From: Candidatus Poseidoniales archaeon
Lineage (GTDB): Archaea > Thermoplasmatota > Poseidoniia > Poseidoniales > Thalassarchaeaceae
Assembly (NCBI GenBank): GCA_028283505.1
Contig: JAPOFX010000003.1
Coordinates: 68,125-132,124, forward strand
DNA length: 64,000 nucleotides
Direction: 5' to 3'
The notes beneath the pieces were generated by a model that was given only the letters and a program-made list of their open reading frames with translations, was not told the DNA's origin and made no database searches. Positions 10,570 to 27,801 of the stretch are shown one piece after another; position 1 is the first letter of the stretch, and each line of letters starts with the position of its first letter. The translations under genes and the position numbers were made by a program.

Positions 10570-13260
10570 CTAAGACTCATCCTGTTCAAGAGCTCGGACT
10601 ATCCTCTTGTTTTCTGACCTGGAACGCATGAAAAGGACGATTACGAGTAGCGCGCCAAATCCGGTTAGCCCATACACTAGTATGTCCTGCATCTCTTGTG
10701 AGAGATCTAGGAATGAATCAGATTTGACCGAATTCACTGTGAGCTCTATTGGCTGACCTGCTACGGGGATTCCCTCTGGCTGAGCTATAACAGTGAATCT
10801 GTAAGAGTCGTCATCCAGTAGTTGGGATGGTGGCGTTGCCCTTACCTGGATCTCTCTGGTCTCTCCTGGGGGAAGCTTGAATTCATCCTCGATAATGTCT
10901 ATTGTCCATCCCCTTAGAGACTCTCCAGATATTATCTCAATGTCCTCAACCACATTGCCGTTGTTTGTCACGAACAATGAGAAAATGGCCTTTTCTGGGT
11001 AATCGACTGTTTGCTCGCTATCACCTTCTAGGGCGAATATGATATCATGTATGGTCATCACTTGAATCATTAAATCCACCGAGGTGGTCTCGGCTGCATT
11101 TCTCTCTGAGGCTGCTGAAACCTTGATTATCCCTGATACTCCATTGGAAACTCCCTCCATGACTTCCATCCGCACCTCTACTAGTATCCTACCATCTTTT
11201 GGAATCTGAATGGAGTTGTCGATCTCGACTCCTTCTACCAAGATACTTCTGGAAACCGATGACTCAAGTCCTGTGATAGTAATCACAGCAGTGTCTCCTG
11301 CGGGGTAGTCTCCGGTATTATCAATCCAGAAGTAGGTTGATAGCCTTCCGCCAGGAGGAAGTATGACTTCCATCTGACTGGGGTCCTCACCTGGTGACTG
11401 GGGTGAGACAGCCATTCCGTAGTTGTAGTTGGAAACAACTACTGTCACAGTGTGTTCAGAGGATTCGCTGGTGCCGAAGATTGCTACTCTGGCGAGGACG
11501 CGTGCCGAGTCTGCATCTTCCTCACCTTCCACTAGGACGTCTAGATATATCTGAGTTGATTGCCCTGGATCTAAGGCTAATTGTGTGATAGAATTACCAT
11601 CAGAGTCGGAAAATGATGATTGCCACATTGGGCTTCCACATCCAGTTTGATCCCCGGGGTCACAAGCTTGGAGTCTGAATGTGTCTCTGATATTGCCCTC
11701 GTTAGTGATCAGGAGGGGGAATTTGACGATCTGATTAGACCTCCCCGTCTGTTGGTCGGAGACCATGGTTGTTGAGACTTCATGCCTGGGAGCAACTGAT
11801 ACTGTTAGATCCTTGGAGTCGTATGGAGTTGATCCTCCTCCTCTTCCGATGGTGAATGAGATAACGGCATCTGATTCGGCACTGGCGTCTTCAGGAACGA
11901 ATACGTCTACCCCTACTGTCTCCTTATTATTGGACGACTGAGAGCTACCTAATGTTACTGATGACTTTGAAAATGAAACCTGCCAACCAGGAGGTACTCC
12001 TGATGTCCCAAGAGCCATGGTTTCCTGACCATTTCCTTGATTTGTGATCTGGATTGAAAGGGTTCCTGAGGTGCCGGGCTCTACATTTGAAAGAGTCGAC
12101 TTGCTTAGTGCCATAGATGCGCCAAATTCCTGTCCGACAGTCACGGTGAGTATCTTCTCACAGCCAATCTCAGAGCCGGCTCTTCCCTGTATTCCTATGG
12201 CGACTTGGGTTCCAGCTTCGAGAGAGTCATCGGGAGTTACATCGAACGTGAAAGTATGGGCATCATCGGAGGACCCTGGCTCTGTTAGCAGTTTACTCCG
12301 AGGGCTGTCAAACTCTATCCAGCCTGAAATATCTTCACCGTCTACAGACTGGGCATTTGCTGTGACGGTCCACTCTGTGTTTCCGATGTTCTCAACTTCG
12401 ATGGAGTTTGATGCCTGTTCTCCCGGGTCAAGATTGTGCGAGCTGTACTGTAGAGAAGCATCGCATTCTTTTATTTCAGGTACATTGAGGCTGAGGGTCA
12501 GGTTATCTTCAGCTTGGTCGGCGGCATTCGGATCGTTGGTGACGGTTGCCTTGAGAATGAAACAATGTGAGCCTGCGTCAGTCTCTGCGCCGTTCGGCAT
12601 ATCAATGGTGACAGTTACTTCTTGTTGATCTTCTGGCTCAAGCTGTAGGACTGACGGATCAACGGTTGCTGATAATTCATCAGATTCGCAGTCACTATCA
12701 GATGTCATCTCAAGTTGTACATTCGCCTGTTGTTCCCCATTGTTTTCAACGTCGACGTCCCAAGTGACTTCATTATCCTCTCCGTCGTAGTTCTTGGTCG
12801 TTGATTCGTCTGTTGAAAGGCTGACCGAGTAAAGACCACCTCCATCACCTGCAGTAGTGACGACGGTTACATCCGCATTTGAAGGGGTTCCTGGGGCTCC
12901 ACCAGATACTTGGCCCTGGGCGTTTACAGTTGTCTCGCATTCACCGCTGGCCTGCTCAGTCACGGTGACAGTCAATGTTACCTGCTCAGAAGACTGGGAA
13001 CCTACTTGGACAAAGGTCGTCTCTAAGGTTGAGGTGAATCCGTTACAATCATTCCCTTGTTGTGTGCTCAAGGACACAGCGGCGTCGTCATCCCCTGTAT
13101 TTCTTACCAATATGTTGTATTCTGCAGCCTCATCTGGAGAGGCCTCTGCAGATGAGGGATTAGCTGAGAGGGAAATATCCACATCTGCAGAAACAACGGT
13201 TGCAGACATGCTAAGGAGCATAATCACGATTAGTACCGTCAGGGGACTCTTGCTTTCCAT
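10570..13260 (-). CDS. Secreted, C-terminally TM-anchored surface protein with about 7 CARDB/NEW3-like Ig repeats (S-layer/adhesin-like)
   Basis: Signal peptide: MESKSPLTVLIVIMLLSMSATVVSADV. Recurring strand motifs about every 110-120 aa: VRNTGDDD, VENNGEQQ, VENIGNTE, ITNQGNGQ, ITNEGNIR, IDNTGDYP, VTNNGNVV. C-terminal TM helix ILVYGLTGFGALLVIVLF followed by a basic tail. Very acidic overall. Confidence 0.7.
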   Translation of the reverse strand: MESKSPLTVLIVIMLLSMSATVVSADVDISLSANPSSAEASPDEAAEYNILVRNTGDDDAAVSLSTQQGNDCNGFTSTLETTFVQVGSQSSEQVTLTVTVTEQASGECETTVNAQGQVSGGAPGTPSNADVTVVTTAGDGGGLYSVSLSTDESTTKNYDGEDNEVTWDVDVENNGEQQANVQLEMTSDSDCESDELSATVDPSVLQLEPEDQQEVTVTIDMPNGAETDAGSHCFILKATVTNDPNAADQAEDNLTLSLNVPEIKECDASLQYSSHNLDPGEQASNSIEVENIGNTEWTVTANAQSVDGEDISGWIEFDSPRSKLLTEPGSSDDAHTFTFDVTPDDSLEAGTQVAIGIQGRAGSEIGCEKILTVTVGQEFGASMALSKSTLSNVEPGTSGTLSIQITNQGNGQETMALGTSGVPPGWQVSFSKSSVTLGSSQSSNNKETVGVDVFVPEDASAESDAVISFTIGRGGGSTPYDSKDLTVSVAPRHEVSTTMVSDQQTGRSNQIVKFPLLITNEGNIRDTFRLQACDPGDQTGCGSPMWQSSFSDSDGNSITQLALDPGQSTQIYLDVLVEGEEDADSARVLARVAIFGTSESSEHTVTVVVSNYNYGMAVSPQSPGEDPSQMEVILPPGGRLSTYFWIDNTGDYPAGDTAVITITGLESSVSRSILVEGVEIDNSIQIPKDGRILVEVRMEVMEGVSNGVSGIIKVSAASERNAAETTSVDLMIQVMTIHDIIFALEGDSEQTVDYPEKAIFSLFVTNNGNVVEDIEIISGESLRGWTIDIIEDEFKLPPGETREIQVRATPPSQLLDDDSYRFTVIAQPEGIPVAGQPIELTVNSVKSDSFLDLSQEMQDILVYGLTGFGALLVIVLFMRSRSENKRIVRALEQDES

Positions 13261-13324: not shown

Positions 13325-16300
13325 TCAAGCCTCAACTAGTTCTTCAACAAGGGCATCGCAATGGAGGCATCTGCCCATGGATACAATGTCGCACCCAGAG
13401 ACTTGGTTGGCCTTGTGATATCTCGCCCCACAAACTGAGCATGCCCATGCATCGCCCACAATGACATCGGTACTACAGATCCAACAGGGAACTCCACTAC
13501 TGGTTGATTCACCGGTTTCCACAGCCTCGCTCTTTCTGGTGGTTGATCTGCTCTTGATTATGCTCGATGGGCTTCCATTAGCCTTCACGTAAACAAACGT
13601 GCCCAATCCAGATAGGACAGCAATAATCAAAGTACCGAGGATTAAGGGGAGGTATGATCCCAAGTCTGAGTCACTTCCGAGTGACGGCATTACATCCACC
13701 TGGATTTCAAATGTAGATCCCTCTACATTTTGGGCGTTGATTAGATTTAGGGAAATCGTGGCATCTTGCGCTCCGGGTGTGAATTCCAGAATCATTCCCC
13801 TTGATTCTCCAGGTGCGAGTACGACTCTTACTCCATCGGTTGTCCTAGCACCCCATGATTCAGGGGCATCCACGTCAAGAGTATGCGAGACATCCGAGTT
13901 TCCAGTATTAGTAATATCGATTCTGTATGTTGATTTGTAGCCCTCATGGGCAATTGGCTCCGAATTAAGCGTCCATGATAATTTCGGAGAATCTTCAACC
14001 AAGAGAGACTTTGTGTCTCTAATTTCAATACCATCACCTTCCATTATTAGTGAGATTGTTGGTTCAGTTCCAGCGGGTTCATCATCTGGAATGACTACGA
14101 GACATTCTACGATATCTGATTCGCCTGGTGCTAGAGATGAGGGGGATGTGCATCCATATGACCAATCTTGGGCTGGAAGTTCCATCGTTGTTGTGGGCCT
14201 CCATACTCCGGCTCCTTCATTCCATACCGTCCAGTGCAAATCAAACCCAGGGTCTCCAACGGGATGTTCTCCCACTCCCAGGATTTCGTCTGAGGAAGAT
14301 CCATCTGGGAGGTATATTTGATGGAAGGAAAGCCCTGGAGAGGCTGCCGATAGGACCTCTACTGTAGTATTCCAGTCAATTTTGAAACCATCTGGAGTTG
14401 CCATACGAACTTGAATCAGACCACCAGTAGCTAGTCCATTTCCTTGTAGTATCATTGCCCAATTTACAGATTGTCCCGCTGGGACCGTCAGAGGATCGAT
14501 TTCAACAACGTTCCAACCACCGGGAGATGCCATGAGGTATGGAGTAAGATCCCAGTCCCTATTTCCTGAATTCTGAATTGAAAACTCAATCTCCAAGATC
14601 GCGTCTGGGGCGATTTCTGAAATTACTCCTCCTGGTTGTGGGGACAGGGAGAATTCGTCAACTGGTCCAACTATCAAGAATATATCTTGAGTCCAGGAAA
14701 TGGAGCTTACTCTGGAATGTACAATTATGGCCGCTTCGAATGTGGTACCTTCTGGTATCATTGCCCCTGGCGGGTTTATGGTGATGTCTATTGTCCTGCT
14801 TGACTGCTTTTGCAGAGTCCCTGTGGACCCATGAGACGAGCCTTCGAATGCACCTATTGAGTCAAGCCCTAAATGCCATCCAGCGGGAGACACCAATTCT
14901 ACGTCATAGGACTGGGCGCCGTTTCCCTCGTTCAGAATAGTGATCTGAGTGTTTGTGGCATCAAAGGGGCTGACGAGTATCTGCTCGTTCAGTAACTGGA
15001 TGTTCGCCTCAGCAAGTACAGGGACCTCGAAGTAGAGTAATGTCTCCGACAGGATATCATTCTCAACGTCGTAGCCGGAGAGTGTCATCGAGTAGATACC
15101 CGGCGGAGGGGGTGCAGGGTGTACCATTGTCATCCCAACGGACACTTCTTCAGTGGGCATCAGATTGAACGTGTTTGAGGTGAATGATTGGAACCATCCG
15201 AACTGTGTTCCATCCTGCACTCTGGTCGGCTCAGATACCGAGATAGTGGCGTTGGTCTCAAATATGGCTGTGTTGGTAAGGGTTAGTTCCCAAGTTGAAG
15301 TTGTAGTAGACGCATCTACCAGAGTCACAGTGTCCTCAACGGCGGAAACCTTTACTCCTGGAGCGCTTACAGTGACTATCTCTCCGAAGTAATTATTTGA
15401 TTCCGACATCTCATCGAATTGATTGTTTGGATCTATGAAGAATTCGAATGACGTATCTCCCTCGGAATCAGGGGTCCATGACCAAACTAAATCATCCGTC
15501 TCCCCGGGGGAGAGTGAAATTAATTGCTCGGCTAGGAAAGCTGAGTTAACTCTGGCCATCACTGGAAAGTCGATTGCGGAGCCGGCTCCGAGATTCTTCA
15601 CCGAGACCGTTACCTGAACCTCCTCACCCACTTGAGGAATGGGTGTGGAAAGATTCATTGAATCTGGAACGAACGTCGGATCCGGGCTTAGATCGTTGAC
15701 ATTGTGCCCCCTTACGGCAATTGAGAATGGTTGCCATGTGCGAGAACCGCCGTGTTGCGAGTCCTTTACTCTGATTGTCCATATTCCCTGGGCGGTACTG
15801 TCCAATGCGACAACCTCTACGTTATTGACAGAATCCTTGCTACCTCCCTGAGTAGATCTGCCATTAGTGAACACATTACCCTTGTAGGTGGCCCCATCTG
15901 GAGAGATTACCTCTAAGTCCAGATCGTTCCTCAATTGAATGGTAGAGCTGGAGGAACCTGGATAATCGGACCAGGTTAGCACTGCCTTGAACTCATTGCC
16001 GGGCGAATTTACATCAAAGGTGTACTCAATTACCTCCCCACTCTTGATTCTCGATCGGTCATCAACGAAGATTCCTACCTCCCCCTCCGGTATGAGAGAC
16101 TGAACCAAATCTATCCTTCCCCATCCTTCATCGTCGTTTGGGATATCTCTGGCCCCCATATCCTTGGCTCCAAGGATCAGGAGAGCCTTTACCAATGATC
16201 CCTGAGGAGCCTGCCTCCCAATCACTTCGGTTAGGTACTCTCTGACTAGGGCCGAAGAACCCGCTGCGGCTGGTGTGGCCATCGACGTTCCGCTGTATTC

Positions 16301-17803
16301 CATATACCAAGTATTAGACCACGATCCTCCTGCAGAGCTAGCTTCCTGTGCTTTGCACGACCGTACGTAGTCCCCGGGGGCCACTAGATCCGGTTTTATT
16401 CGGCCATCATCAGTGGGGCCCCTACTGCTCCAGTAGTACATTTCGTCGGGTGCGCCACTGTACCTGTTCTTGTGACCACCAACAGTGATTACATTCTTCG
16501 CAGTCCCCGGAGAAGATACTCCATCGTCCCTTTCGTTTCCGGCCGCGAATAGTACAGTCATACCGTCATAAGACCAATACTGATCCCAAGTTGATGTTCT
16601 ATCGTCGGCATCTTCTGACTGTGTAGAGTAGTCCCCAAAACCACTTTGAGATCCCCAACTATTGGTATGGATTCTGGCTCCTGCATTGTATGCAGAATTT
16701 AGCATGGAATTAATCCCATAACTGTAGAGAGCTCCTGAATCATCATCCTCCATTGCCTGAAAGTACAATTCGGCCTCCGGGGCGACCCCTTGATAACCAC
16801 CATTGCTCCTAAATCCTGATCCAAGAACAGTACACGCAACATGCGTCCCGTGACCATCACTTGGATCCGCGGTTGATGAGTCCCCAGGGGTCACGGAGGT
16901 TACGCCTGCCAGCCTTCCGGTGAAGTCTCCGTGGTCTTGATCGAGTCCAGAGTCGCCCACTGCGACAATCTGGCCACTACCATTTAGGCCGGTTATGAAT
17001 GCATTCTCTATCGTGTTGATTCCCATGTTTATTCTTGCTTGGTCATTGTGCAGAATAAGGACTGGAAGAGGCGAGATATACGATACAGAAGGATGTGACA
17101 CTATGCGTGAGATATTAGCGAAGTCTGCCGATCCCCAAATTACTCCTGGTTCCGGGGACCAGGGCTCTGTGAGATAGCCCATTACGGCTTCAATGGAGTC
17201 CTGAAGTCCCAATCCTGGATTTTTGAGGCGAGACATGTCATCGCCCTTCCATCCGATTACCTCGATCATCAATTCTTGGGATTGGGTGGGGAATCTTAGT
17301 GATGGATGAATTAAGAGTCCGCTGGGAACCTCATGAACAGAGGTAATTGACTCCAGTGACTCCAGTTCCGTGAGGGCTTTCTCGGTTCCTTGTACTAAGA
17401 ACCCAGAGGGGGGAATCATAGAACGGATGGATATGCCCCCCAACTGTAGTACATCCATTCTCGAGTCCCAGAGTCCTGTATTTCCATCAATCAGTGCGAC
17501 TGCCAGATCTACTCTTGGGATTGAGAATGACTCATCCATGAATTCACTTGGAATCAAACCATTTTGTGTGTACGTTCCTATTGTGGAATGTGCGACTACC
17601 TGCCGAATTTCTTCTGATCCCTGTGAGATGGATGGAGCTCCTAAATCCCTGATACTTCGCGGATCAGGGGAAATTTCAACCCTCTCGTAATTGATCCCTA
17701 ATCCCGAAAGTATCGACTCTTCGGAGGACTTATTTTCACCAGTAACAGGGAGATATGACAAGAGGAGCACGGCTAGCACCACAACTACGGCACGCTTTGT
17801 CAT
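13325..17803 (-). CDS. Membrane-anchored subtilisin-like serine protease (S8) with multiple Ig-like repeat domains and a cytoplasmic Cys-rich zinc-ribbon tail
   Basis: Signal peptide: MTKRAVVVVLAVLLLSYLPVTG. S8 triad motifs: VAVGDSGLD (Asp), HGTHVACTVLG (His), SGTSMATPAAAG (Ser). Repeat motifs: VKNLGAGS, ILNEGNGA, IQNSGNRD, VWNEGAGV, ITNTGNSD. TM helix: LPLILGTLIIAVLSGLGTFVYV. Tail: CWIC-x11-CSVC-x12-C-x7-CLHC. Confidence 0.85.
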   Translation of the reverse strand: MTKRAVVVVLAVLLLSYLPVTGENKSSEESILSGLGINYERVEISPDPRSIRDLGAPSISQGSEEIRQVVAHSTIGTYTQNGLIPSEFMDESFSIPRVDLAVALIDGNTGLWDSRMDVLQLGGISIRSMIPPSGFLVQGTEKALTELESLESITSVHEVPSGLLIHPSLRFPTQSQELMIEVIGWKGDDMSRLKNPGLGLQDSIEAVMGYLTEPWSPEPGVIWGSADFANISRIVSHPSVSYISPLPVLILHNDQARINMGINTIENAFITGLNGSGQIVAVGDSGLDQDHGDFTGRLAGVTSVTPGDSSTADPSDGHGTHVACTVLGSGFRSNGGYQGVAPEAELYFQAMEDDDSGALYSYGINSMLNSAYNAGARIHTNSWGSQSGFGDYSTQSEDADDRTSTWDQYWSYDGMTVLFAAGNERDDGVSSPGTAKNVITVGGHKNRYSGAPDEMYYWSSRGPTDDGRIKPDLVAPGDYVRSCKAQEASSAGGSWSNTWYMEYSGTSMATPAAAGSSALVREYLTEVIGRQAPQGSLVKALLILGAKDMGARDIPNDDEGWGRIDLVQSLIPEGEVGIFVDDRSRIKSGEVIEYTFDVNSPGNEFKAVLTWSDYPGSSSSTIQLRNDLDLEVISPDGATYKGNVFTNGRSTQGGSKDSVNNVEVVALDSTAQGIWTIRVKDSQHGGSRTWQPFSIAVRGHNVNDLSPDPTFVPDSMNLSTPIPQVGEEVQVTVSVKNLGAGSAIDFPVMARVNSAFLAEQLISLSPGETDDLVWSWTPDSEGDTSFEFFIDPNNQFDEMSESNNYFGEIVTVSAPGVKVSAVEDTVTLVDASTTTSTWELTLTNTAIFETNATISVSEPTRVQDGTQFGWFQSFTSNTFNLMPTEEVSVGMTMVHPAPPPPGIYSMTLSGYDVENDILSETLLYFEVPVLAEANIQLLNEQILVSPFDATNTQITILNEGNGAQSYDVELVSPAGWHLGLDSIGAFEGSSHGSTGTLQKQSSRTIDITINPPGAMIPEGTTFEAAIIVHSRVSSISWTQDIFLIVGPVDEFSLSPQPGGVISEIAPDAILEIEFSIQNSGNRDWDLTPYLMASPGGWNVVEIDPLTVPAGQSVNWAMILQGNGLATGGLIQVRMATPDGFKIDWNTTVEVLSAASPGLSFHQIYLPDGSSSDEILGVGEHPVGDPGFDLHWTVWNEGAGVWRPTTTMELPAQDWSYGCTSPSSLAPGESDIVECLVVIPDDEPAGTEPTISLIMEGDGIEIRDTKSLLVEDSPKLSWTLNSEPIAHEGYKSTYRIDITNTGNSDVSHTLDVDAPESWGARTTDGVRVVLAPGESRGMILEFTPGAQDATISLNLINAQNVEGSTFEIQVDVMPSLGSDSDLGSYLPLILGTLIIAVLSGLGTFVYVKANGSPSSIIKSRSTTRKSEAVETGESTSSGVPCWICSTDVIVGDAWACSVCGARYHKANQVSGCDIVSMGRCLHCDALVEELVEA

Positions 17804-17857: not shown

Positions 17858-18418
17858 CTAGAGAATCTTTAATGGGGCCCTTAGAGTAAAGAGTTCTAGA
17901 GTCCAGGTTCCCACTTCCATAGTAGTCTTCTCGTAAACAGGTCCTCTGTAGTTATCATAGCTGAAGATTATTTCTATCGTGTAGTTCTCCCAAACCGACT
18001 CTCCGTTGACTATCATTTCAAGCTCATCTCCGGCAACAGACTTGTGAGCTGAGATCAAATCTGACTCGAAATGTATTCTTTGTATCTCAGCATCATCATC
18101 ATCCATGAAGACTATATCCAAGGAGACTGATTCTATAGCTCTGCTTCCCTGATTGTTTATCTCTGCCAGAACGATGTGACTCGAGCCGCTCTGCTTGTAG
18201 ATTACGTCTACTGAAACCCTGTCATACGGAACAAGCCAGACCAATGCCAAAACAGAGGCTGAGAGTACCAAGAGTGCAGATATAGACGCAAATACGACCC
18301 TGAATGGGGATATTTGACTGATTTTTTCCTCTATGATTTCCAAGGCTTCATGTGCGGTTTTTTCCTCGGGGGTCTCCTCGGGCTCTTTAGATAGCCTGAT
18401 TCTTTCCAAGAGACCCAT
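17858..18418 (-). CDS. Small type-II membrane protein with a single Ig-like (CARDB-type) ectodomain
   Basis: 186 aa with an acidic N-terminus and the TM helix FRVVFASISALLVLSASVLALVWLV. A beta-rich domain follows, carrying the AEINNQGSRAIESVSLDI motif. Its start overlaps the stop of the 1464-aa gene by 1 nt (TGATG at 18418). Confidence 0.55.
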   Translation of the reverse strand: MGLLERIRLSKEPEETPEEKTAHEALEIIEEKISQISPFRVVFASISALLVLSASVLALVWLVPYDRVSVDVIYKQSGSSHIVLAEINNQGSRAIESVSLDIVFMDDDDAEIQRIHFESDLISAHKSVAGDELEMIVNGESVWENYTIEIIFSYDNYRGPVYEKTTMEVGTWTLELFTLRAPLKIL

Positions 18419-21400
18419 CAGCTACCCCCCAAGAGTGTGGCTATTAGCGTCATTAGGCCCGAAGATACCGGTTCGATTACCATGATGTGCTGAGTGTCAC
18501 CTTCGAAGCCAGGAATAATGTTCAGAATGGAAAGATCTGATGCCATTCCGTTAACACCTATCGTTGTTGCAGTAGGAATTCCCGATGTTGTCTGTGCATC
18601 TAGAAGAACTCCCCTAAGATCGAACTCTTGTCCAGCTACCTCAGCTGATGCCCTGGCTGAAATGATTATCTTGCCACCCTGGACATCTGAAAGCTCAATT
18701 ACGGGGTAGCCTGGAAGTGTCGACGAAATTCTTCCAAATTCATGAATATGGATAGTGGCACTCTTCAAGTCCTCTCCCAATGCCTCCATTTCCTCCATTG
18801 TGACTGGAGGAGTTGTAGGGATGTTACTAGACCGGATGTATATTTTGTCGACACCGTCTCCCCCCGATCTAATATTCAAACCAAATCCATCAGCAGGTTT
18901 GATTATCAAGCTATCAGTCATTCCTTCTGCTAACAATATGATGTCTCCCTTGGTATTAATTGATCTACCAAAGGCCTCAATGTACAGGGACATCCCCTCG
19001 CCAGACGCACGATAATCCAATGTGGGAATCCCCTGGAAGGCTAGACTCTCCCTTATGTCGAAATCTGTATCGGGCTCCGTGGTGAGATTAATCGAGCCGG
19101 GAACATCTGTGAGGAAAATTGTGGCTGGCCACCACTCAGAGTCCATCCATTGCATCTGTTGCATCATGATGGAACTAATTCCTACACCGTCATCTTTGAG
19201 GTACTGTTCTGGAACCGTCATGTCTATCGATACAGCGGTTCCAAGAGATGCAGTGATGTCCACAACCTCTGGAATTTCATCAATCATTATCTCGGTTCTG
19301 CTACCAGCGTCCCTATTGATCAGTAAGACATGGGCCCATTCCAAGGGGTTGGTCATGGAATATCTTGCTGAGGTGGATACCTCTGTTATCCCTGCAACGT
19401 TTTCAAACTCGAATGTGGAGTCAATCAGCATGCCCGTTGGGACGCCGACTTGTAGACCATTCAATGTCATTAGGAGGTCTTGACCGTTTATGCCCATAGC
19501 TTGAATCATAATCTCGCTATGTGCGGGGACCCATCCATCGAGTGCTAACATAACTCCCCAGTCTTGTGAGTCCCCTTCAACGGATCTAGAGACTGACATG
19601 TCAACCACCGGAGGCAGATCAGGAATCCAGGTTCTCAGATGGAACCCGTCTGAAATTCCAGATGGAGAAGCGACAAATGAAACCCCATGTACCCAAGGTG
19701 GCGTTTCCAGTGAGCCATCGCCGTGGCTGGCCTCAACGACAAGATCGAACGGTGCATTCGCCTCTAGCTGCATACCGAATGAGAAATTTTCATTTGATTC
19801 CCCAGAGCTTGAGCCTGTGGAAATATCGGTTGTAATCCCGGAAAGAACAGCATTTAAGGACCTTCCTAGATCAGAGAATCCTCCGAGGAAGAATGCGAGC
19901 CCTGAAAGGCCTTGTGTCGAATTGAGTTCAGGGATGTCCAAAGCTTGTCCTGAATCAGAGCTTGTTGGAACTTCTACAGATACCGATGATGGTAGTGGGT
20001 CAATTATCGCAACGGCTGTCAGGAGGTCCTCATCCATGGTTGGAGCGTGATCCACGCTGAAGCTCATGATCCTGTCACCTGAGGCAGACAATGACGCCTT
20101 TCCCCTGCCATCTGGGCCAAATGCTCCCTCGGAGACAGGAGGAATCCAGCTGACCTCGGAAATACCGGAGATTCTAGATGAGATGGCAGAGGTTCCATCA
20201 TTCGGGTCATGATGAAACATAAAGTGATCACCAGACATCGTTTCTGGGGCTTGTGAGTCTGTAATCTGAGCCTCTATTGTGCCGATAGATGTCCCTGTGC
20301 TCCAGCTTGAATATGATCCAAATAGAGCTGTGAACTCATCCGGGAAGTCGGTTATCTCGACGGCTTGCCTTTGTTCCAAATCCTTTCCAGTATAGATTAT
20401 TTTGTCGATTCCACCCGATGATGTGTAGACCGCTGTTTCGTCATCGACGTAAACCCTGATATCATCCGGAATATCCGAGACATACAGAGACTGGAATGAA
20501 GACTCTGAAATCGTTCTTGGATCATGATCCAAGTACGTAAAATTGAATGGCTCAGAAGAGGATGTATTTACTGATATTGTCAATTGGTCGAGAATATCAT
20601 CATCATCTACTGAAAGGGCTGACAGCCCACTGAATTCTATACTAGCGGCAACGGGGACCAAGGGGTCTACTAATGTTCCATCTCTGCTCAAAACCTGAGT
20701 CAGTGACCTGTCTTTCGCCAAGACCAGATGGTCGCCTTGGAGTATCGGATGAGGGCTTGACCCTATTTGCAAACCGATTTTCCCAATGGATAACTCGTTT
20801 CTGAGGACACCCCAGTTGTCGTGCATTATCAGATTGAATTCCCTGCCCTGCAAATCTCCGCTCGGACCTACGCTACCGGTGATTGCTTCCACGACGGTCG
20901 CGGGAATGCCGTTTAGTACTCCCCCAACTTCCAGGTAGAGATCGACTAAATCCATGATTAATGAGTCTAGAATACGAGAAACGAAATCTAGGTTATCGGA
21001 GTTATCCAAGCTTATGTCATCGTCATCCTCGCCACTCACATCGAAGGAACCGTATAGCACTAAAGCGGAGGGAATTGATTGTATGGAGATGCTAACTTTC
21101 CTGTGATCAGATGCTTCTCCTCCTCTCTCGAACCATGATTCATAGTCGATTGATTCCAGGGGCTGAGCTGACCTCAGCAATATCATACTTATTGGGGGGT
21201 ATGCAGGGTTTACTGGAAGAGTGGGATCATCCTCGTTGGGACTAGTATCCCTCGAGAAATTCTTGATTCCTAATATCAAACCCAGTCTGCCAGGCTTACC
21301 TCCAGGTAACTCTGGCTCGTCGGATGAGCCTAGCATTCTGAAGATCCTAGTTATCTCTCCTTGAGACATTGACCCCTCAGGCATTCCCCTGAGCCATCCG

Positions 21401-22812
21401 AGTGAATTTGTAGTGTTGCCATGTGCCCCCTCATTCTCATCTTGGGGGATTCCTGACCTATCTTCATGGAAATGAATATGCAAGTCAGATCTTCTATCAG
21501 CGAAATACTCCACGGTTGTAAGGCTCCTGTCTCCCTCAATTCCGCCTGCCGCTGGTATAGTGCTGTCCGTTCTGATGACCAATTCCAGATCCCCGGGAAT
21601 CATCTCCGAAACCCCGTTGGGCTTGACGTCGAGGTCGATGTACGCTAATTCCCACAATTCCCTGTCTCCATCCGAAGGGGGGGAGAATCTCCCGTAACCA
21701 AGACCCACCGATATCCCACAGTCAATCTCGCTTGGGGGGAGGAATAGAAGTTGCTCTGGGCTATACCTGTCCGGGCACGAGTCCATGTCGCTGGAGTCGA
21801 GGGATATCGAGTAGGGTGCAGAAATGCCGATCAGGGTTAGTCCCGAACCATCAAAGTTTGATCCGAATATGTTCACTATTGCCGCTAAAAGGTCCTGTAA
21901 CACAGCACTAGCATTGAAGAATACTCTCTCAATGCCGATATCCAGAGAAAAGTCCTGTGGCATTGTTGAGAATTTTGAGTCGACAACCCAAACATAACTC
22001 TCCCCGTCACCGAGTGCAAGTACTGAGTCTGGGCTGGAGTAGGCGAAAGGCTTGATTAGGGAAACCTGCAAGGAGTCCATTTCATTCCATACAGGATCTG
22101 TCTGACTTTCATCGAGCACGTCTACTTTGTATGATACCGATGGCTGTATCCACAATGTTCCAGTGTCAATATCTATGTTGCCCAGTCCAAAATTTCCTAG
22201 AGATATACTGAGGCCGACTTGGATATCATTATCTCCATCATTATCGATATCCACGGCGTGGCTCAGGGGGTCAGTTTGAGGATTTATCAGAGAGAGGAAG
22301 TTGGTAGTGAAAGTTACAACATTAGTGCCTGTAACGGTATTTCCTTCGAGGTCTATGTATTCCGTCAATATCACATAATCCGTTATGTTTACCAATGTCT
22401 GCCAGACATTGTCCACATTTACTGAGTCTTCCTCGCCGGTTATCAGTCTGTAAGGGAGGGGGTGTTCGGAGCCAGGAGAGAGAGTCTCGCTGAACGATGT
22501 GCCTTCCAAGGATTGGCCAATGGTGGATAACGGGTCCGATTGACCACTCAGAGAAATCCCGTCTCTGACACCCTGGATGGTCGGACCAGCAATCTGCCCG
22601 ACTGAGTTAGAGTCCAAAACTGCTTGACGCTCGCCCATCACATCAGAAAGCCTGTCTAGAATCTCGAAGTCCTGAGACTCTATCCTTGCCTCCGCCTCGG
22701 CTTGTTGGATTGGGTAGAAAAGTGGAATAAGCATCATAAGAACCAGGACTAATGCTCTGTTGCTTGAAACATTGGGGGCGCCATGTAGAACACGGACACC
22801 GCTCTTGTTCAT
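18418..22812 (-). CDS. Giant (1464 aa) acidic secreted protein with no domain I can recognise
   Basis: N-terminal signal/anchor NRALVLVLMMLIPLFYPIQQAEAEA. Strong D/E/S/T bias throughout. One DIDNDGDNDIQ calcium-loop-like element. The protein ends in a short hydrophobic stretch, SSGLMTLIATLLGGS, with no basic tail. Confidence 0.6.
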   Translation of the reverse strand: MNKSGVRVLHGAPNVSSNRALVLVLMMLIPLFYPIQQAEAEARIESQDFEILDRLSDVMGERQAVLDSNSVGQIAGPTIQGVRDGISLSGQSDPLSTIGQSLEGTSFSETLSPGSEHPLPYRLITGEEDSVNVDNVWQTLVNITDYVILTEYIDLEGNTVTGTNVVTFTTNFLSLINPQTDPLSHAVDIDNDGDNDIQVGLSISLGNFGLGNIDIDTGTLWIQPSVSYKVDVLDESQTDPVWNEMDSLQVSLIKPFAYSSPDSVLALGDGESYVWVVDSKFSTMPQDFSLDIGIERVFFNASAVLQDLLAAIVNIFGSNFDGSGLTLIGISAPYSISLDSSDMDSCPDRYSPEQLLFLPPSEIDCGISVGLGYGRFSPPSDGDRELWELAYIDLDVKPNGVSEMIPGDLELVIRTDSTIPAAGGIEGDRSLTTVEYFADRRSDLHIHFHEDRSGIPQDENEGAHGNTTNSLGWLRGMPEGSMSQGEITRIFRMLGSSDEPELPGGKPGRLGLILGIKNFSRDTSPNEDDPTLPVNPAYPPISMILLRSAQPLESIDYESWFERGGEASDHRKVSISIQSIPSALVLYGSFDVSGEDDDDISLDNSDNLDFVSRILDSLIMDLVDLYLEVGGVLNGIPATVVEAITGSVGPSGDLQGREFNLIMHDNWGVLRNELSIGKIGLQIGSSPHPILQGDHLVLAKDRSLTQVLSRDGTLVDPLVPVAASIEFSGLSALSVDDDDILDQLTISVNTSSSEPFNFTYLDHDPRTISESSFQSLYVSDIPDDIRVYVDDETAVYTSSGGIDKIIYTGKDLEQRQAVEITDFPDEFTALFGSYSSWSTGTSIGTIEAQITDSQAPETMSGDHFMFHHDPNDGTSAISSRISGISEVSWIPPVSEGAFGPDGRGKASLSASGDRIMSFSVDHAPTMDEDLLTAVAIIDPLPSSVSVEVPTSSDSGQALDIPELNSTQGLSGLAFFLGGFSDLGRSLNAVLSGITTDISTGSSSGESNENFSFGMQLEANAPFDLVVEASHGDGSLETPPWVHGVSFVASPSGISDGFHLRTWIPDLPPVVDMSVSRSVEGDSQDWGVMLALDGWVPAHSEIMIQAMGINGQDLLMTLNGLQVGVPTGMLIDSTFEFENVAGITEVSTSARYSMTNPLEWAHVLLINRDAGSRTEIMIDEIPEVVDITASLGTAVSIDMTVPEQYLKDDGVGISSIMMQQMQWMDSEWWPATIFLTDVPGSINLTTEPDTDFDIRESLAFQGIPTLDYRASGEGMSLYIEAFGRSINTKGDIILLAEGMTDSLIIKPADGFGLNIRSGGDGVDKIYIRSSNIPTTPPVTMEEMEALGEDLKSATIHIHEFGRISSTLPGYPVIELSDVQGGKIIISARASAEVAGQEFDLRGVLLDAQTTSGIPTATTIGVNGMASDLSILNIIPGFEGDTQHIMVIEPVSSGLMTLIATLLGGS

Positions 22813-22895: not shown

Positions 22896-25298
22896 TCATT
22901 CTATCTCTACGATCTCCATTGATCCGCAATGGGGGCAAGCTGTCTTGGCTCTGTCCAAACCCTTTGGCAAATCTACTTCGAACATCTTGTCGCACTCAGA
23001 ACAATTCTTCCTGACTGTTCTGTTTTCTTCTTGTTCTTGGGCCTCTTCCTGGACGTGATCTTGTAATTGATTAGATTGTTCTGGATTATGCCCTGCCTCG
23101 GCCCCTTCTCGTTTTTCCGATTCCTCTGTGAATGAGTATTCCACAACGCTTTCCAGAATCTGAGATGGGGGGTCTTCGTCTTCGAATGCACTGAGGAGAT
23201 CGGCGGCAAGGCTATCGGAGGGATCCGATTGAGAAGGCTGTGAAAGTAGTTCAGCAAATTCTTCCTCACTGATCTCCAGTGAGCTGGCCTCTGAATCTGG
23301 AGCGGAGGCCCCCGACATGCCACTTGCAATATCCCCGATAGCCATTGGTTGCGTGTTTGATAGAGTTCCGCCAGAGCCTCCCCACATGGCTTTCTGCTCC
23401 TCGGCTGAGGGCTCCCTGACAACAGTTTGGTCTTCCTCCGCTTCGGTTTCGGAGTCGGCGAGCAAAGCGGCCACTCTCCTATTTGAGGCGATTCTCAAAT
23501 ATGCCAAGAAAGAGAGTACAAAAAGTAGTGATAATGCCCCTAGGGCCATCAGAAGGTCGCTTAGTCCAATCCCATCTCCGCTCTCAGCGTCTGTGACTGT
23601 AACGAGTATTTCTACATCTGAAACCAGCCCCTCGTCGTTCTGGACCCTGCAGATTACCCGGTATACTCCCGACTCTGAGAATGTATGCTGTACCGTCGGT
23701 CCGACAGCGTCCTCGTCGTTGTCCACGGTTCCGTCGCCATCGGTATCTACCTGAGCATTGAAATCCCAAGAGTAGTACAGACTTTCCGACTCTTGATCTT
23801 CGAAAGGTACTCCCAGGGTAGTTGATTGTCCTTGGACAGACCTCAAGGTGCTGTCAAACACTCCAGGGATCGGGGGGGTCGAGTCAAACAGTTGGATGGA
23901 AGCGGTGTCTTCCGAAGACATCCCAGAGAGATCGGTTACTCTGAGAGTGATCATGTGAATTCCGGATTCGGCCTCTGAGGGGAATGTGTATGCGAACGTG
24001 CGTGCAGATTCAAAATCGGCTTCGAAGGTTGACTGGATCGCACCGTCCAGTATCCACTCGACCTTTGAAACACCCCAGTTATCACTGAAGGTCGAATCGA
24101 CGACTATGTTCTCGTTGAACGATCTTTCAAGAATTCCATCAACTAAAATTTCCACTTCAGGAGGCGACATGTCCTCAATCGTTATGTCTTCGTATACGCT
24201 AGTACTCCTTCCATCTATCCCTAGGACTGATAGTCTGATTGTCAGATTACTCGGCTCTGGCCAGCTGATGTTGAAGGCCTTCTCGGTACTATCTTCAAAT
24301 CCGTCCCCGTCAGTGTCCCATGAGTATCCTGATTCGGGAATTTGATCGGAGAGGTTGGGGGTTTCTGATGCATCAAGAGTGATTTCCGAGCCGACATCGA
24401 CGATTCCGGAGGAGGGTATTCCAGATACTTTTGGATCCATTATCGGAGTAAGTGATAGGACAACCGTGGATGCGATTGGAAGTGTTCCTGCACCTCCTCC
24501 CGACGGTCCAGGCTTATTGTCCACAACGAGGTAGAGTTCCTTTCCCTCCAAAGATTCTGGAACTGTCCAAACTAGGTTCCTGCTTGAGGTTACAAGAAGC
24601 AGATCGGTTCCTTGGACTCGGGCTGCTGCTGTTCCTCCCCCATTGTACATTTCCAACTGATCATCATCCATAAGAAAAACATCAGGGGCTCCCTGCATTG
24701 TGCTTACGTCTATCCTCACTTGGGTCCCTTTGTCCATCGAGAAGGGGCCGTAGAGGGTGGAGCTCTGGCCGGATTCCAATCGAACGATGGTGTCCACTAG
24801 AGTGAACGGTTCAGGTATCACAGTTGAGATGTCCAGAGTCACTGAAGCTGGATTTCCTCCTTGGTCACCTGACCCGGAATCTTGCGGATGCGCGAGGTTG
24901 TCTATCACCATATACCACCTTGTGGCGTCTCTATCAGATGGAACAGTCCAATGCCATTCCCCTGAACCATTGAATGCCTCGAAAACTGAGTCGCTTTCCC
25001 AGACAGAGTCGCTCCTGTATGACTGCTCGTTCTGATAAACGGTTATTGCGTTTGAAGAGAACAACAGTATGTCTATCTCAGAATCTGTGGAGATATCGAA
25101 GGATATTGTCTCGCCCTGCTGAAGCACTCCGAGATCTACCCTGACGCAGGACTGATCCTGAACATCCCAATTCGCCGGCATCATTTCCATATCTGCTCCA
25201 GCACATGTAACGACGCCCCTAGAGGAGTCAGCGTTTGCGAGAGGCGAGCAAGTGGCCATCAAGAGGGTGGCGACGGTCAGTATTGTGGTTGCACGCAC
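22896..25298 (-). CDS. Membrane-anchored surface protein with tandem N-terminal beta-sandwich repeats, PKD domains, a long acidic cytoplasmic tail and a C-terminal zinc ribbon
   Basis: GTG start and signal peptide MRATTILTVATLLMATCSPLANA. PKD-type motifs YSWDTDGDGFEDS and YYSWDFNAQVDTDGDGTVDNDEDAVGPTVQHTFSESGVYRVICRVQNDEGL. TM helix LLMALGALSLLFVLSFLAYL. The 199-aa D/E/S-rich tail ends in CSECDKMFEVDLPKGLDRAKTACPHCGS. Confidence 0.75.
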   Translation of the reverse strand: MRATTILTVATLLMATCSPLANADSSRGVVTCAGADMEMMPANWDVQDQSCVRVDLGVLQQGETISFDISTDSEIDILLFSSNAITVYQNEQSYRSDSVWESDSVFEAFNGSGEWHWTVPSDRDATRWYMVIDNLAHPQDSGSGDQGGNPASVTLDISTVIPEPFTLVDTIVRLESGQSSTLYGPFSMDKGTQVRIDVSTMQGAPDVFLMDDDQLEMYNGGGTAAARVQGTDLLLVTSSRNLVWTVPESLEGKELYLVVDNKPGPSGGGAGTLPIASTVVLSLTPIMDPKVSGIPSSGIVDVGSEITLDASETPNLSDQIPESGYSWDTDGDGFEDSTEKAFNISWPEPSNLTIRLSVLGIDGRSTSVYEDITIEDMSPPEVEILVDGILERSFNENIVVDSTFSDNWGVSKVEWILDGAIQSTFEADFESARTFAYTFPSEAESGIHMITLRVTDLSGMSSEDTASIQLFDSTPPIPGVFDSTLRSVQGQSTTLGVPFEDQESESLYYSWDFNAQVDTDGDGTVDNDEDAVGPTVQHTFSESGVYRVICRVQNDEGLVSDVEILVTVTDAESGDGIGLSDLLMALGALSLLFVLSFLAYLRIASNRRVAALLADSETEAEEDQTVVREPSAEEQKAMWGGSGGTLSNTQPMAIGDIASGMSGASAPDSEASSLEISEEEFAELLSQPSQSDPSDSLAADLLSAFEDEDPPSQILESVVEYSFTEESEKREGAEAGHNPEQSNQLQDHVQEEAQEQEENRTVRKNCSECDKMFEVDLPKGLDRAKTACPHCGSMEIVEIE

Positions 25299-26412: not shown

Positions 26413-26516
26413 TGGTCCGCGCTCCCGGACTTGAACCGGGGACCCCCTGATGGCTGCCTACAACCATGTGTTTCCAGTCTACAGTCAGGTGCTCTAGCCA
26501 ACTGAGCTAAGCGCGG
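26413..26516 (-). tRNA. tRNA-Tyr (GUA) with a 27-nt intron at the canonical 37/38 position and encoded CCA
   Basis: Manual fold of the minus strand. Acceptor CCGCGCT/AGCGCGG, with the C1-G72 pair typical of archaeal tRNA-Tyr. D arm GCTC-AGTTGGCTA-GAGC. Anticodon stem CCTGA/TCAGG and loop CTGTAG|intron|A. T arm CCCGG-TTCAAGT-CCGGG. Discriminator A followed by CCA. The mature length is 77 nt. Confidence 0.85.
26452..26478 (-). other. tRNA-Tyr intron (27 nt) with a bulge-helix-bulge splice motif
   Basis: Intron sequence: ACTGGAAACACATGGTTGTAGGCAGCC. Nucleotides 32-35 (CUGU) pair with intron GCAG as the 4-bp central helix. The flanking 3-nt bulges are AG|A and CC|A, and both splice sites fall after the second bulge nucleotide. 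Confidence 0.7.
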
Positions 26517-26733
26517 CGCGTGCACTCCTAGAGCTTTTGCCTTATGTCGCTTTCCGGAGAACGGCCAAGCCCGTAGGCCTGATAAACCGGCACTTCGGAC
26601 CTCGTCCGGCCCCTCAAACTTAAGAATGCGAAGAATTGGAACTCACGTCCGTAAGGCAGCAATGCCGGGGATGCACGGGGGATATTTGGTGAGAGGAGTC
26701 ATTGATTCTCAAGCTACCCCTGGCTCCAGTAGG

Positions 26734-27801
26734 ATGAAGACCGCGCTTACAGATATTGAGCTGGAGTCGTTTGGTACTCCGGACCCAAGGATTCTGGTTT
26801 GTGGCTGTGGGGGCTCGGGCAACAACACCATGAATCGCATCACACACATTGGGGTCGAGGGGGCGATTACCGTCGCCATAAACACCGACAAGCAGGACCT
26901 CGACCTGACTAGGGCAATGCAGAAGCTGCTTGTTGGGAGGCACATCACCAGGGGACTCGGTGCAGGGGGGGACCCGGTGATGGGAAGACGCTGCGCCGAG
27001 GCTGGCAGAGACGTTATTGGCAAGATAGTCCATGGGGCTGACCTTGTGTTCGTCACTGCCGGTCTCGGTGGCGGCACCGGCACTGGAATCGCACCAATAG
27101 TCGCAGAGGAGGCGAAGAGAGCAGGCGCTCTCGTCGTGGCGGTTGTGACTACGCCATTCACGGTAGAGAGGCGACAGAGGATGCAACGGGCTCTGGAGGG
27201 GCTCGACCTACTGAGGAGCACAGCCGATGCTGTACTGGTGCTTGACAACAACAGGCTCCTGCACTTCGTACCCAACCTTCCTCTCGATGAGGCGTTCAGT
27301 ATCATGGACCAGCTAATAGCTGAGATCGTCAAGGGAGTAGTGGAGACGATAACCCTCCCGAGCTTGATAAACCTAGACTTCGCTGATGTGAGGAGCATAA
27401 TGAAGAACGGGGGCGTGACTATGATGCTTTACGGAGAGAGCGACCAAGGCCCAGAGGAGGTCGTCCACGAGTCACTCAACCACCCTCTACTGGACATAGA
27501 GATAGAAGGGGCCACAGGTGCCCTGATACACGTCACAGGGGGGCCGTACATGACGATGGAGCAGGCGACACAGGTATGCGATCTAATGACCTCAAGGCTG
27601 TCTCCTGAGGCGAATGTGATATTCGGTGCTAGGCAGGACCCTGCCTTCGGAGACACCATCAAGGTGATGTCGATAATTACCGGTGTCGCCAACAAGCGCC
27701 TCGATGAGGAGATGATGAGCGCGGATATGCTCGGGGAAGCGCTCAATATCGCCAGAAAAGGCAGAAAACCGCATGACAGCGGATTCCAAAGATTCGACTG
27801 A
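26734..27801 (+). CDS. ftsZ: Cell division GTPase FtsZ
   Basis: Motifs: ILVCGCGGSGNNTMNRI; the tubulin signature AGLGGGTGTGIAPIVA; VVTTPFTVERRQR. An alternative upstream start at 26626 would add 36 basic, poorly FtsZ-like residues. Confidence 0.9.
   Translation: MKTALTDIELESFGTPDPRILVCGCGGSGNNTMNRITHIGVEGAITVAINTDKQDLDLTRAMQKLLVGRHITRGLGAGGDPVMGRRCAEAGRDVIGKIVHGADLVFVTAGLGGGTGTGIAPIVAEEAKRAGALVVAVVTTPFTVERRQRMQRALEGLDLLRSTADAVLVLDNNRLLHFVPNLPLDEAFSIMDQLIAEIVKGVVETITLPSLINLDFADVRSIMKNGGVTMMLYGESDQGPEEVVHESLNHPLLDIEIEGATGALIHVTGGPYMTMEQATQVCDLMTSRLSPEANVIFGARQDPAFGDTIKVMSIITGVANKRLDEEMMSADMLGEALNIARKGRKPHDSGFQRFD

Follow-up and report, generated by a model that had tools for sequence, protein, structure and literature searches.

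The 64,000-nucleotide stretch of a Candidatus Poseidoniales genome analysed here (contig JAPOFX010000003.1, positions 68,125 to 132,124; hereafter the window) encodes a subtilase of the S8 family that appears to couple an extracellular protease to a folded zinc module inside the cell. According to the list of open reading frames and its translation, the gene occupies 13325-17803 on the minus strand (stop codon 13325-13327) and encodes a predicted type-I membrane-anchored protein of 1492 residues, which ends in a finger with eight invariant candidate zinc ligands. We consider it very likely that this tail is a cytoplasmic, zinc-binding finger of the RING family. Our overall explanation, a type-I subtilase with a RING-like finger that docks or clusters the enzyme independently of a conjugating enzyme (E2), is the one towards which we lean on balance.

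The domains of the protease, all on the minus strand, were placed by Pfam and by reading the sequence. A signal-peptide-like N-terminus (residues 1-22, MTKRAVVVVLAVLLLSYLPVTG; 17738-17803), read directly from the sequence, is followed by the Peptidase_S8 catalytic domain at residues 275-562 (16118-16981; PF00082, E 3.8e-47, 161.4 bits against a cut-off of 21.8), in which the Asp, His and Ser triad motifs VGDSGLD, DGHGTHVA and SGTSMATP are intact. The domain belongs to Peptidase S8 and looks active. The P-domain of proprotein-convertase type at residues 621-686 (15746-15943; P_proprotein, PF01483) passes its cut-off with 24.2 bits against 21. Residues 715-1384 (13652-15661) constitute a stalk of CARDB and Ig-like repeats, with Pfam matches to CARDB at residues 715-806 (E 2.1e-16) and to NPCBM_assoc/Ig at residues 1287-1345 (E 1.8e-6). 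The single transmembrane (TM) helix, LPLILGTLIIAVLSGLGTFVYV, covers residues 1385-1406 (13586-13651; hydropathy 2.17 over 19 residues). Residues 1407-1436 (13496-13585) form a linker, first basic and then acidic, that leads to the predicted two-zinc finger at residues 1437-1492 (13328-13495). The linker of about 30 residues is poorly conserved and probably disordered; its predicted local distance difference test (pLDDT) values were 49-60. In public records, the protein goes under "S8 family serine peptidase" or simply "hypothetical". We found no literature description of this architecture in Marine Group II, nor of "Prok-RING", in a literature coverage that did not include Burroughs, Iyer and Aravind (2011).

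Seven of the eleven Cys residues of the protease fall within its final 53 residues, and the Cys density is 8.1% (7/86) in the tail beyond the TM helix versus 0.29% (4/1359) in the ectodomain. The tail pattern CWIC-x11-CSVC-x12-C-x7-CLHC (C1440 to C1482, nucleotides 13358-13486) is far beyond chance. A preliminary description of the window had reported this tail, with CxxC knuckles behind the TM helix, and we found it exactly as described. It measures 86 residues, however, and not 87, and the seven reported Cys, which are indeed invariant, are joined by an invariant His that had been overlooked. The complete spacing is C-x2-C-x11-C-x2-C-x4-H-x7-C-x7-C-x2-C, with C1440, C1443, C1455, C1458, H1463, C1471, C1479 and C1482 as predicted ligands. 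In alignments of 19 and 41 diverse tails, the corresponding positions (C34, C37, C49, C52, H57, C65, C73 and C76 of the tail) were invariant, as were further columns occupied by G, A and R. The ligand His is that of GARYH; the one inside CLHC varies, with CTNC, CISC and CRNC in orthologues. Among eleven full-length orthologues, the alignment gave the motif GVPCWICS...G.A.ACS.CGARYHK..QV.GCDI.S.GRCLHCDA.V..LVE. The eight ligands would bind two zinc ions in C4HC3 order, which is the signature of binuclear treble-clef fingers such as PHD and RING-variant fingers and does not fit a ribbon.

The kinship of the tail emerged from profile searches in the same phylum. The domain profile weakly matched C-terminal domains of other Thermoplasmatota, including the C-terminus of a 1587-residue protein (E 2.8e-5 per genome). 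The matched domain, CTLCRGTILPGLDIVVCDNCGAVYHLPCAKRVGKCLKC, is an unambiguous Prok-RING_1 (PF14446) with 57.9 bits against a cut-off of 29.1. Alignment of the Poseidoniales profile with four such Prok-RING_1 domains by hhalign yielded a probability of 97.7% (E 1.9e-12); the eight ligands are in register, and the tail carries five inserted residues (N-Q-V-S-G) after the His and before the sixth ligand. The ligand order and the first five spacings of Prok-RING_1 recur invariantly in the tail, while the spacing from His to Cys is x7 and not x2. Because hhalign links the two with all ligands aligned, the tail appears to be a diverged Prok-RING_1-type finger with five extra residues before the sixth ligand. 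AlphaFold2 modelled the domain with pLDDT values of 88-95 on the tail alignment, and with a pLDDT of 92.2 and a predicted template modelling score of 0.78 for the domain alone. When both models were compared with the PDB by Foldseek, RING-type structures ranked first (BMI1, RING1B, Rad18, Bre1, U-box and SP-RING; TM-scores of 0.55-0.58, probability about 0.9). In view of the C4HC3 ligands, the hhalign result and a model closest to RING and U-box domains, the label "zinc ribbon" of the preliminary description has to be given up.

Several results weigh against this assignment. In Pfam, the tail reached only 14.6 bits (E 0.033) on Prok-RING_1, below the cut-off of 29.1, and DZR (double zinc ribbon) scored about equally, in 17 of 19 tails. 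The Foldseek E-values were about 0.1 and thus not significant, none being 0.001 or lower, and rubredoxin came next with a TM-score of about 0.47. The AlphaFold2 model of the domain alone contains no zinc. The pairing of the ligands is presumably of the cross-brace kind that, with a beta-beta-alpha topology, characterises RING folds (ligands 1, 2, 5 and 6 on one zinc ion, 3, 4, 7 and 8 on the other) rather than sequential. The hhalign targets, finally, had been picked from matches of the query profile and are not fully independent of it.

The remaining family matches were all sub-threshold. In Pfam, the tail alone gave a mixture of C1_1, DZR (15.1 bits) and Prok-RING_1, besides Zn_ribbon_3 (13.4 bits). 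Across 19 tails, Prok-RING_1 was the commonest match (18/19, best E 1.3e-4), C1_1 was found in 15, and none exceeded its cut-off. A profile search for Prok-RING_1 gave no match at E <= 1e-5 in any Poseidoniales genome, and a profile search of PDB sequences with the tail reached at best E 0.017, with RING-H2, C1 and L37Ae ribbons as matches. A plain zinc ribbon was rejected on the grounds that the eight invariant ligands include a His and a lone Cys, that the ribbon families stay below threshold and that the kin are RING-type fingers. Lipid binding of the C1 or FYVE kind was likewise set aside: bona fide Prok-RING_1 domains show the same weak C1_1 similarity, which reflects the common treble-clef core. 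In both models, the final residues belong to a beta-strand of the domain, and a free C-terminal ligand of the PDZ type was rejected accordingly.

The tail is predicted to be cytoplasmic because the protein combines a signal-peptide-like start with one TM helix and a positive-inside charge bias. In the window protein, the 15 residues before the helix contain no Lys or Arg and three Asp or Glu, while those after it contain three Lys or Arg and no Asp or Glu. The corresponding means for 66 orthologues are 0.59 K+R and 2.89 D+E before the helix, and 2.58 and 1.89 after it; 65 of the 66 show the positive-inside sign, and equally many have a hydrophobic h-region at the N-terminus. By these heuristics, that is, hydropathy, charge counts and a signal-peptide-like start, the protein has the signal peptide, the single later TM helix and the positive C-terminal flank of a type-I single-pass protein. 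A Cys-rich zinc module would also suit the reducing cytoplasm better than sea water. The cytoplasmic placement of the tail in the preliminary description, and its interpretation of a secreted protease coupled to an intracellular zinc module, are thus upheld as far as topology and coupling are concerned.

The finger is found nearly always once per Poseidoniales genome, where it terminates an open frame of about 1500 residues. Its profile matches 171 of 201 Poseidoniales genomes, covering both large families, and 57 of the 61 high-quality ones. A scan in which each prokaryotic species was represented by one genome found the tail in 84 species. The C-x2-C...H...C-x2-C pattern is intact at 79 of 80 species loci, the lone exception having ambiguous bases, so that the Cys pattern proved to be conserved in orthologues, as the idea of the preliminary description required; complete frames at the 80 loci encode S8 proteins of about 1490-1610 residues. 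A word-indexed search limited to the TM helix and the tail returned eleven full-length orthologues of 1492-1528 residues with the same tail. With the tail alone, a full HMMER scan of 1.8 billion representative proteins matched just 18 proteins, nearly all of them fragments of the protease. A separate family of short proteins consisting of TM helix and tail was rejected for this reason; such entries are most likely truncated gene calls. All but two of the titles of tail-bearing records read Poseidoniales, Thalassarchaeum, Marine Group II or a broader archaeal name. The two exceptions are contigs (PAHZ01000001.1 and PAJW01000011.1) in metagenome-assembled genomes labelled Chloroflexota and Gammaproteobacteria, which carry the Poseidoniales protease gene and are most likely mis-binned.

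To gauge regional conservation, we averaged the identity of 66 full-length orthologues to the window protein. The mean was highest for the S8 domain (0.86), followed by the P-domain (0.70), the zinc domain (0.69), the Ig stalk (0.57) and the TM helix (0.42), and lowest for the linker (0.22). The finger is therefore conserved as much as the P-domain, while the TM helix and the linker drift, and the tail domain appears to be under strong purifying selection.

In the mechanism that we propose, the S8 domain, the P-domain and the Ig-like stalk would lie outside the cell, one helix would cross the membrane, and a flexible linker of about 30 residues would carry the 56-residue two-zinc finger in the cytoplasm. 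There, the finger would need no E2: as a protein-protein module, it would dock the protease from within or gather it into clusters, a cytoplasmic scaffold or RING-type dimerisation being possible means. As Poseidoniales appear to be without ubiquitin-type machinery, docking of the protease to an internal partner is the probable use of the finger; for docking or clustering as its function, we would put the chances marginally below even. Of the roles that the preliminary description had offered, namely docking, sorting, positioning or a releasable signalling domain, docking is our best guess, and nothing speaks for release.

The finger is one of several exchangeable tail modules on giant surface proteins, next to C4 ribbons and two Trp-rich motifs. 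It is missing from two genera of one family, g8 and g13, in which it is replaced. In genus g8, the syntenic protease orthologue has the same neighbours and similarly placed ectodomain Cys residues (324, 482, 1219 and 1236, versus 324, 483, 1218 and 1234 in the window protein), and it ends in ...NLERFSEYPGWLWDxxxxEWVPDPD in place of the finger. The motif HPGWLWD....EWVP also terminates a 1409-residue surface protein of the window's genome. Two Trp-rich motifs, HPGWLWD-x4/5-EWVP and [GS]GLP[EP]GW[TS]MEQWxxYG, recur at the tails of giant surface proteins (C16:40466-44695, C1:21844-25308 and C16:159978-163169 on the minus strand, L113:7803-12269 on the minus strand and L114:7118-11758 on the plus strand); neither matches a Pfam family.

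C4 ribbons are found on the first gene of the cluster to which the protease belongs. By Pfam and sequence, the 800-residue product of this gene (22896-25298, minus strand) is a PKD surface protein. Its PKD domain follows a signal peptide, and a TM helix (about residues 582-600, about nucleotides 23499-23555) precedes an acidic linker of roughly 165 residues. The tail motif of the protein is CSEC-x18-CPHC (residues 766-791, nucleotides 22926-23003), and the tail alone scores 28.9 bits (E 1.2e-6) on Zn_ribbon_8, below the Pfam cut-off of 34.4. The preliminary description had called this tail analogous to that of the protease. It is indeed a predicted cytoplasmic C4 ribbon, analogous but not homologous to the protease finger. 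All of 61 Poseidoniales genomes encode the PKD protein, at a distance of about 10 kb from the S8 gene and with alignments reaching residues ~795-800; its ribbon is conserved across the order and retained in genus g8. In the window's own genome, two more giant paralogues of the S8 protease each combine a signal peptide with a single TM helix. The one with 1594 residues (contig C11:259084-263868, minus strand) ends in a C4 ribbon tail, ...CDGCNSIFEVEAGLTRAKCPVCG, which resembles ...CSECDKMFEVDLPKGLDRAKTACPHCG of the PKD protein in FEV...RAK..CP.CG. The other, with 1582 residues (contig C16:5262-10010, minus strand), ends in GLPEGWTMEQWSAYG, a tail common to two more surface proteins. Two further membrane proteins of this genome terminate in one or two MJ0042-like ribbons, and a simple screen listed 37 type-I-like proteins in it, about 20 of them with tails of at least 25 residues.

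Exchangeable modules on flexible tethers would indicate a generic cytoplasmic role, such as docking or clustering, and not one tied to proteolysis. That a short Trp-rich motif can stand in for the finger also cuts the other way, as the role of the finger might then be merely generic. Tentatively, and with doubts that outweigh our confidence, we suggest that the tail modules of the three S8 proteases and of the PKD and Ig-repeat proteins form an address code for one or a few internal scaffolds. The finger would then be a former E3 domain, retained after the E2 of an ancestral ubiquitin-like system of the Thermoplasmatota was lost, and now purely a docking or dimerising device.

A simpler view would take the tail as a passive rivet: any small module that folds quickly or sticks would fix the type-I topology and keep the 1400-residue ectodomain from being pulled out, without a specific partner. 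The variety of unrelated modules, including acidic tails, that end many giant surface proteins agrees with such a function, as does the swapping of tail modules on orthologues. Yet residues at the surface of the finger that are not ligands (W, G, A, GAR-Y, Q and the C-terminal L-x-E-A) are near-invariant across the order, which is more than a folding plug needs. Several giant type-I proteins, moreover, manage with tails of 3-18 residues, among them the neighbouring 896-residue protein, and linkers of 30-200 residues would be superfluous in a rivet. We regard this view as rather improbable.

A second alternative is that the finger is a working membrane-anchored RING E3 ligase, which would recruit a ubiquitin-like conjugation enzyme and modify cytoplasmic or membrane proteins depending on contacts made by the ectodomain. 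It draws on the homology of the tail to Prok-RING_1, on the retained first knuckle C-x-[ILV]-C, on weak PDB sequence matches to RING-H2 ligases, including the transmembrane ZNRF3, and on the situation in other Thermoplasmatota. Bona fide Prok-RING_1 domains occur in 18 of 251 sampled genomes of the phylum, many of them at the extreme C-terminus, 15-35 residues past a TM helix. Full-length carriers combine a signal peptide with cohesin, PKD, Big_9/cadherin-like or CARDB domains, a TM helix, a basic linker and the finger; two of them pass the Prok-RING_1 cut-off in whole-protein Pfam scans. The succession of surface protein, TM helix and cytoplasmic RING-family finger is hence a wider theme of the phylum, of which the Poseidoniales protease is a derived case. 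Of the 18 genomes with Prok-RING_1, 13 also have UQ_con, an E2 family (Fisher p 9e-5 for this enrichment, without correction for phylogeny), and the canonical TM-anchored fingers may work with an E2 as membrane-bound E3 ligases.

RING fingers require an E2 for their ligase function. Among 61 Poseidoniales genomes, 49 of them of high quality and the window's own included, neither UQ_con nor Prok-E2_B was detected. The same UQ_con search exceeded the Pfam cut-off in 72 of the 251 genomes of the phylum, on frames of about 160-230 residues (e.g., L144-L147). Since the search covered these two families, a very divergent E2 could escape it, a point that tells against an E2-independent finger. The five-residue insert lies just ahead of the central helix, with which RINGs contact the E2, and the last Cys is followed by Asp or Asn and not by the basic "linchpin" residue. 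Owing to the undetected E2, the insert beside the central helix and the Asp or Asn after the last Cys, a ligase role is unlikely for the Poseidoniales finger, and its replacement by a zinc-free motif in genus g8 is a further argument against it. A separate observation concerns a 1587-residue protein made up almost entirely of coiled coil (L089:720-5483, plus strand, genome G312; a relative is found on L090, genome G250), whose C-terminal part consists of a CARDB-like segment and, last, a strong Prok-RING_1 domain. It has no obvious TM helix, and both genomes are complete Thermoplasmatota genomes of 1.4-1.5 Mb in which no E2 was detected.

We consider it very improbable that the tail is a nucleic-acid-binding double zinc ribbon, or a regulator that is freed by intramembrane proteolysis to act as a signal. 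The three CxxC knuckles and the sub-threshold DZR matches (best E 8.9e-5) would fit a double ribbon, whereas the invariant His and the lone Cys follow the C4HC3 order of RING and PHD fingers and not that of four knuckles, and hhalign ties the tail to Prok-RING_1. The tail contains 8 K+R versus 10 D+E, and the acidic to neutral character of the domain argues against nucleic-acid binding. As to release, we noticed no conserved cleavage motif in the poorly conserved TM helix and linker, and no protease gene is linked to the conserved neighbourhood. A frameshift or a chimeric assembly, both named by the preliminary description as possible objections, and likewise a mis-called stop are practically out of the question given the uninterrupted frame with the same end domain in independent assemblies of 171 genomes, and the clusters of hundreds of identical or near-identical protease sequences in public databases.

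The proteins most similar to the protease with its docking or clustering finger are the TM-anchored Prok-RING_1 proteins of other Thermoplasmatota. In these, too, the finger stands at the extreme C-terminus, past a TM helix and a basic linker and behind a signal peptide and Ig, PKD or CARDB domains, and it shares with the Poseidoniales finger the C4HC3 order and the core CG-x-x-[YF]-H, besides the profile-profile match. The Poseidoniales protein differs in its S8 protease ectodomain, in H-x7-C in place of H-x2-C, in a longer linker and in a score below the Pfam cut-off; most canonical members are, in addition, accompanied by a UBC-type E2. Eukaryotes possess ligases composed of ectodomain, TM helix and RING, namely the PA-TM-RING proteins (RNF13 and RNF128/GRAIL) and ZNRF3/RNF43, which are proven E3 enzymes working with E2s. 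From a signal peptide through a luminal or extracellular domain and a single TM helix to a cytosolic two-zinc finger of RING type, these proteins have the same domain order across the membrane as the protease. Their ectodomains are, however, not active proteases, and their sequence similarity to the tail is insignificant (E 0.03).

On the protease side, furin and Kex2 are type-I membrane proteins with an S8 domain, a P-domain and a cytoplasmic tail for sorting. They share with the archaeal protease the signal peptide, the succession of S8 and P-domain, the single TM helix and a cytoplasmic tail, which catalysis does not require and which presumably serves in positioning. The tails of furin are short linear sorting motifs serving an endomembrane system, which these archaea are not known to have, whereas that of the archaeal protease is a predicted folded zinc domain, and about 700 residues of CARDB and Ig repeats intervene in the latter; we do not claim orthology. 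For the proposed mechanism itself, ZitP of Caulobacter crescentus offers a parallel. This membrane protein docks on the polar scaffold PopZ with its cytoplasmic zinc finger, so that a small zinc module on a single-pass membrane protein serves purely for docking. Docking in the manner of ZitP would also suit the PKD protein and the S8 paralogue with their C4-ribbon tails. In ZitP, by contrast, the finger is N-terminal and a C4 ribbon, the protein is bacterial and its partner is known.

Poseidoniales (Marine Group II) rank with the most abundant archaea in the surface waters of the ocean. They have not been cultured, and protein degradation is thought to be their way of life. To our knowledge, almost nothing has been reported on how their envelope is built. 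Because the block of surface-protein genes stays adjacent across the order, the protease is probably a core envelope enzyme, and a strictly conserved cytoplasmic domain would mean that machinery outside is coupled to something inside the cell. The 56-residue finger is a concrete bait in a search for this partner. In Poseidoniales, a RING-family finger persists under apparently strong selection without a detectable E2, whereas sister lineages keep both finger and E2. The case therefore concerns the use of RING domains before ubiquitin signalling and apart from it, as well as the origin of the ectodomain-TM-RING layout in eukaryotes.

The protease gene belongs to a block of five surface-protein genes whose members are adjacent across the order, with the complex I operon downstream. 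The order of a 1464-residue protein, a 186-residue protein, S8, an 896-residue Ig protein, nuoA and nuoB is kept in 67-79 of the 80 loci, and no ubiquitin-like, protease-regulator, protease or cytoskeletal gene is linked to this conserved neighbourhood. The 1464-residue protein (17858-22812, minus strand) is acidic and secreted and matches no Pfam family; at its end stands a short hydrophobic stretch, LMTLIATLLGGS, without a basic tail. The conserved 186-residue frame starts where this gene stops, the two overlapping at 18418. These two genes are kept beside the protease in 70-72 of the 80 loci. Directly downstream of the protease gene, the Ig-repeat protein of 896 residues (10570-13260, minus strand) is type-I anchored with a tail of only 18 residues (RSRSENKRIVRALEQDES), which means that long modular tails are not universal among the proteins of the cluster. 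FtsZ, which the preliminary description had proposed as a candidate partner, is encoded nearby at 26626-27801 on the opposite strand, beyond the genes for ribosomal protein L15e and a tRNA; the gene context gave no evidence of a functional link between it and the protease. The Rfam match of this tRNA (26416-26516, minus strand) spans 101 nucleotides for a model of 71 positions, and the gene, located between those for L15e and FtsZ, probably contains an intron.

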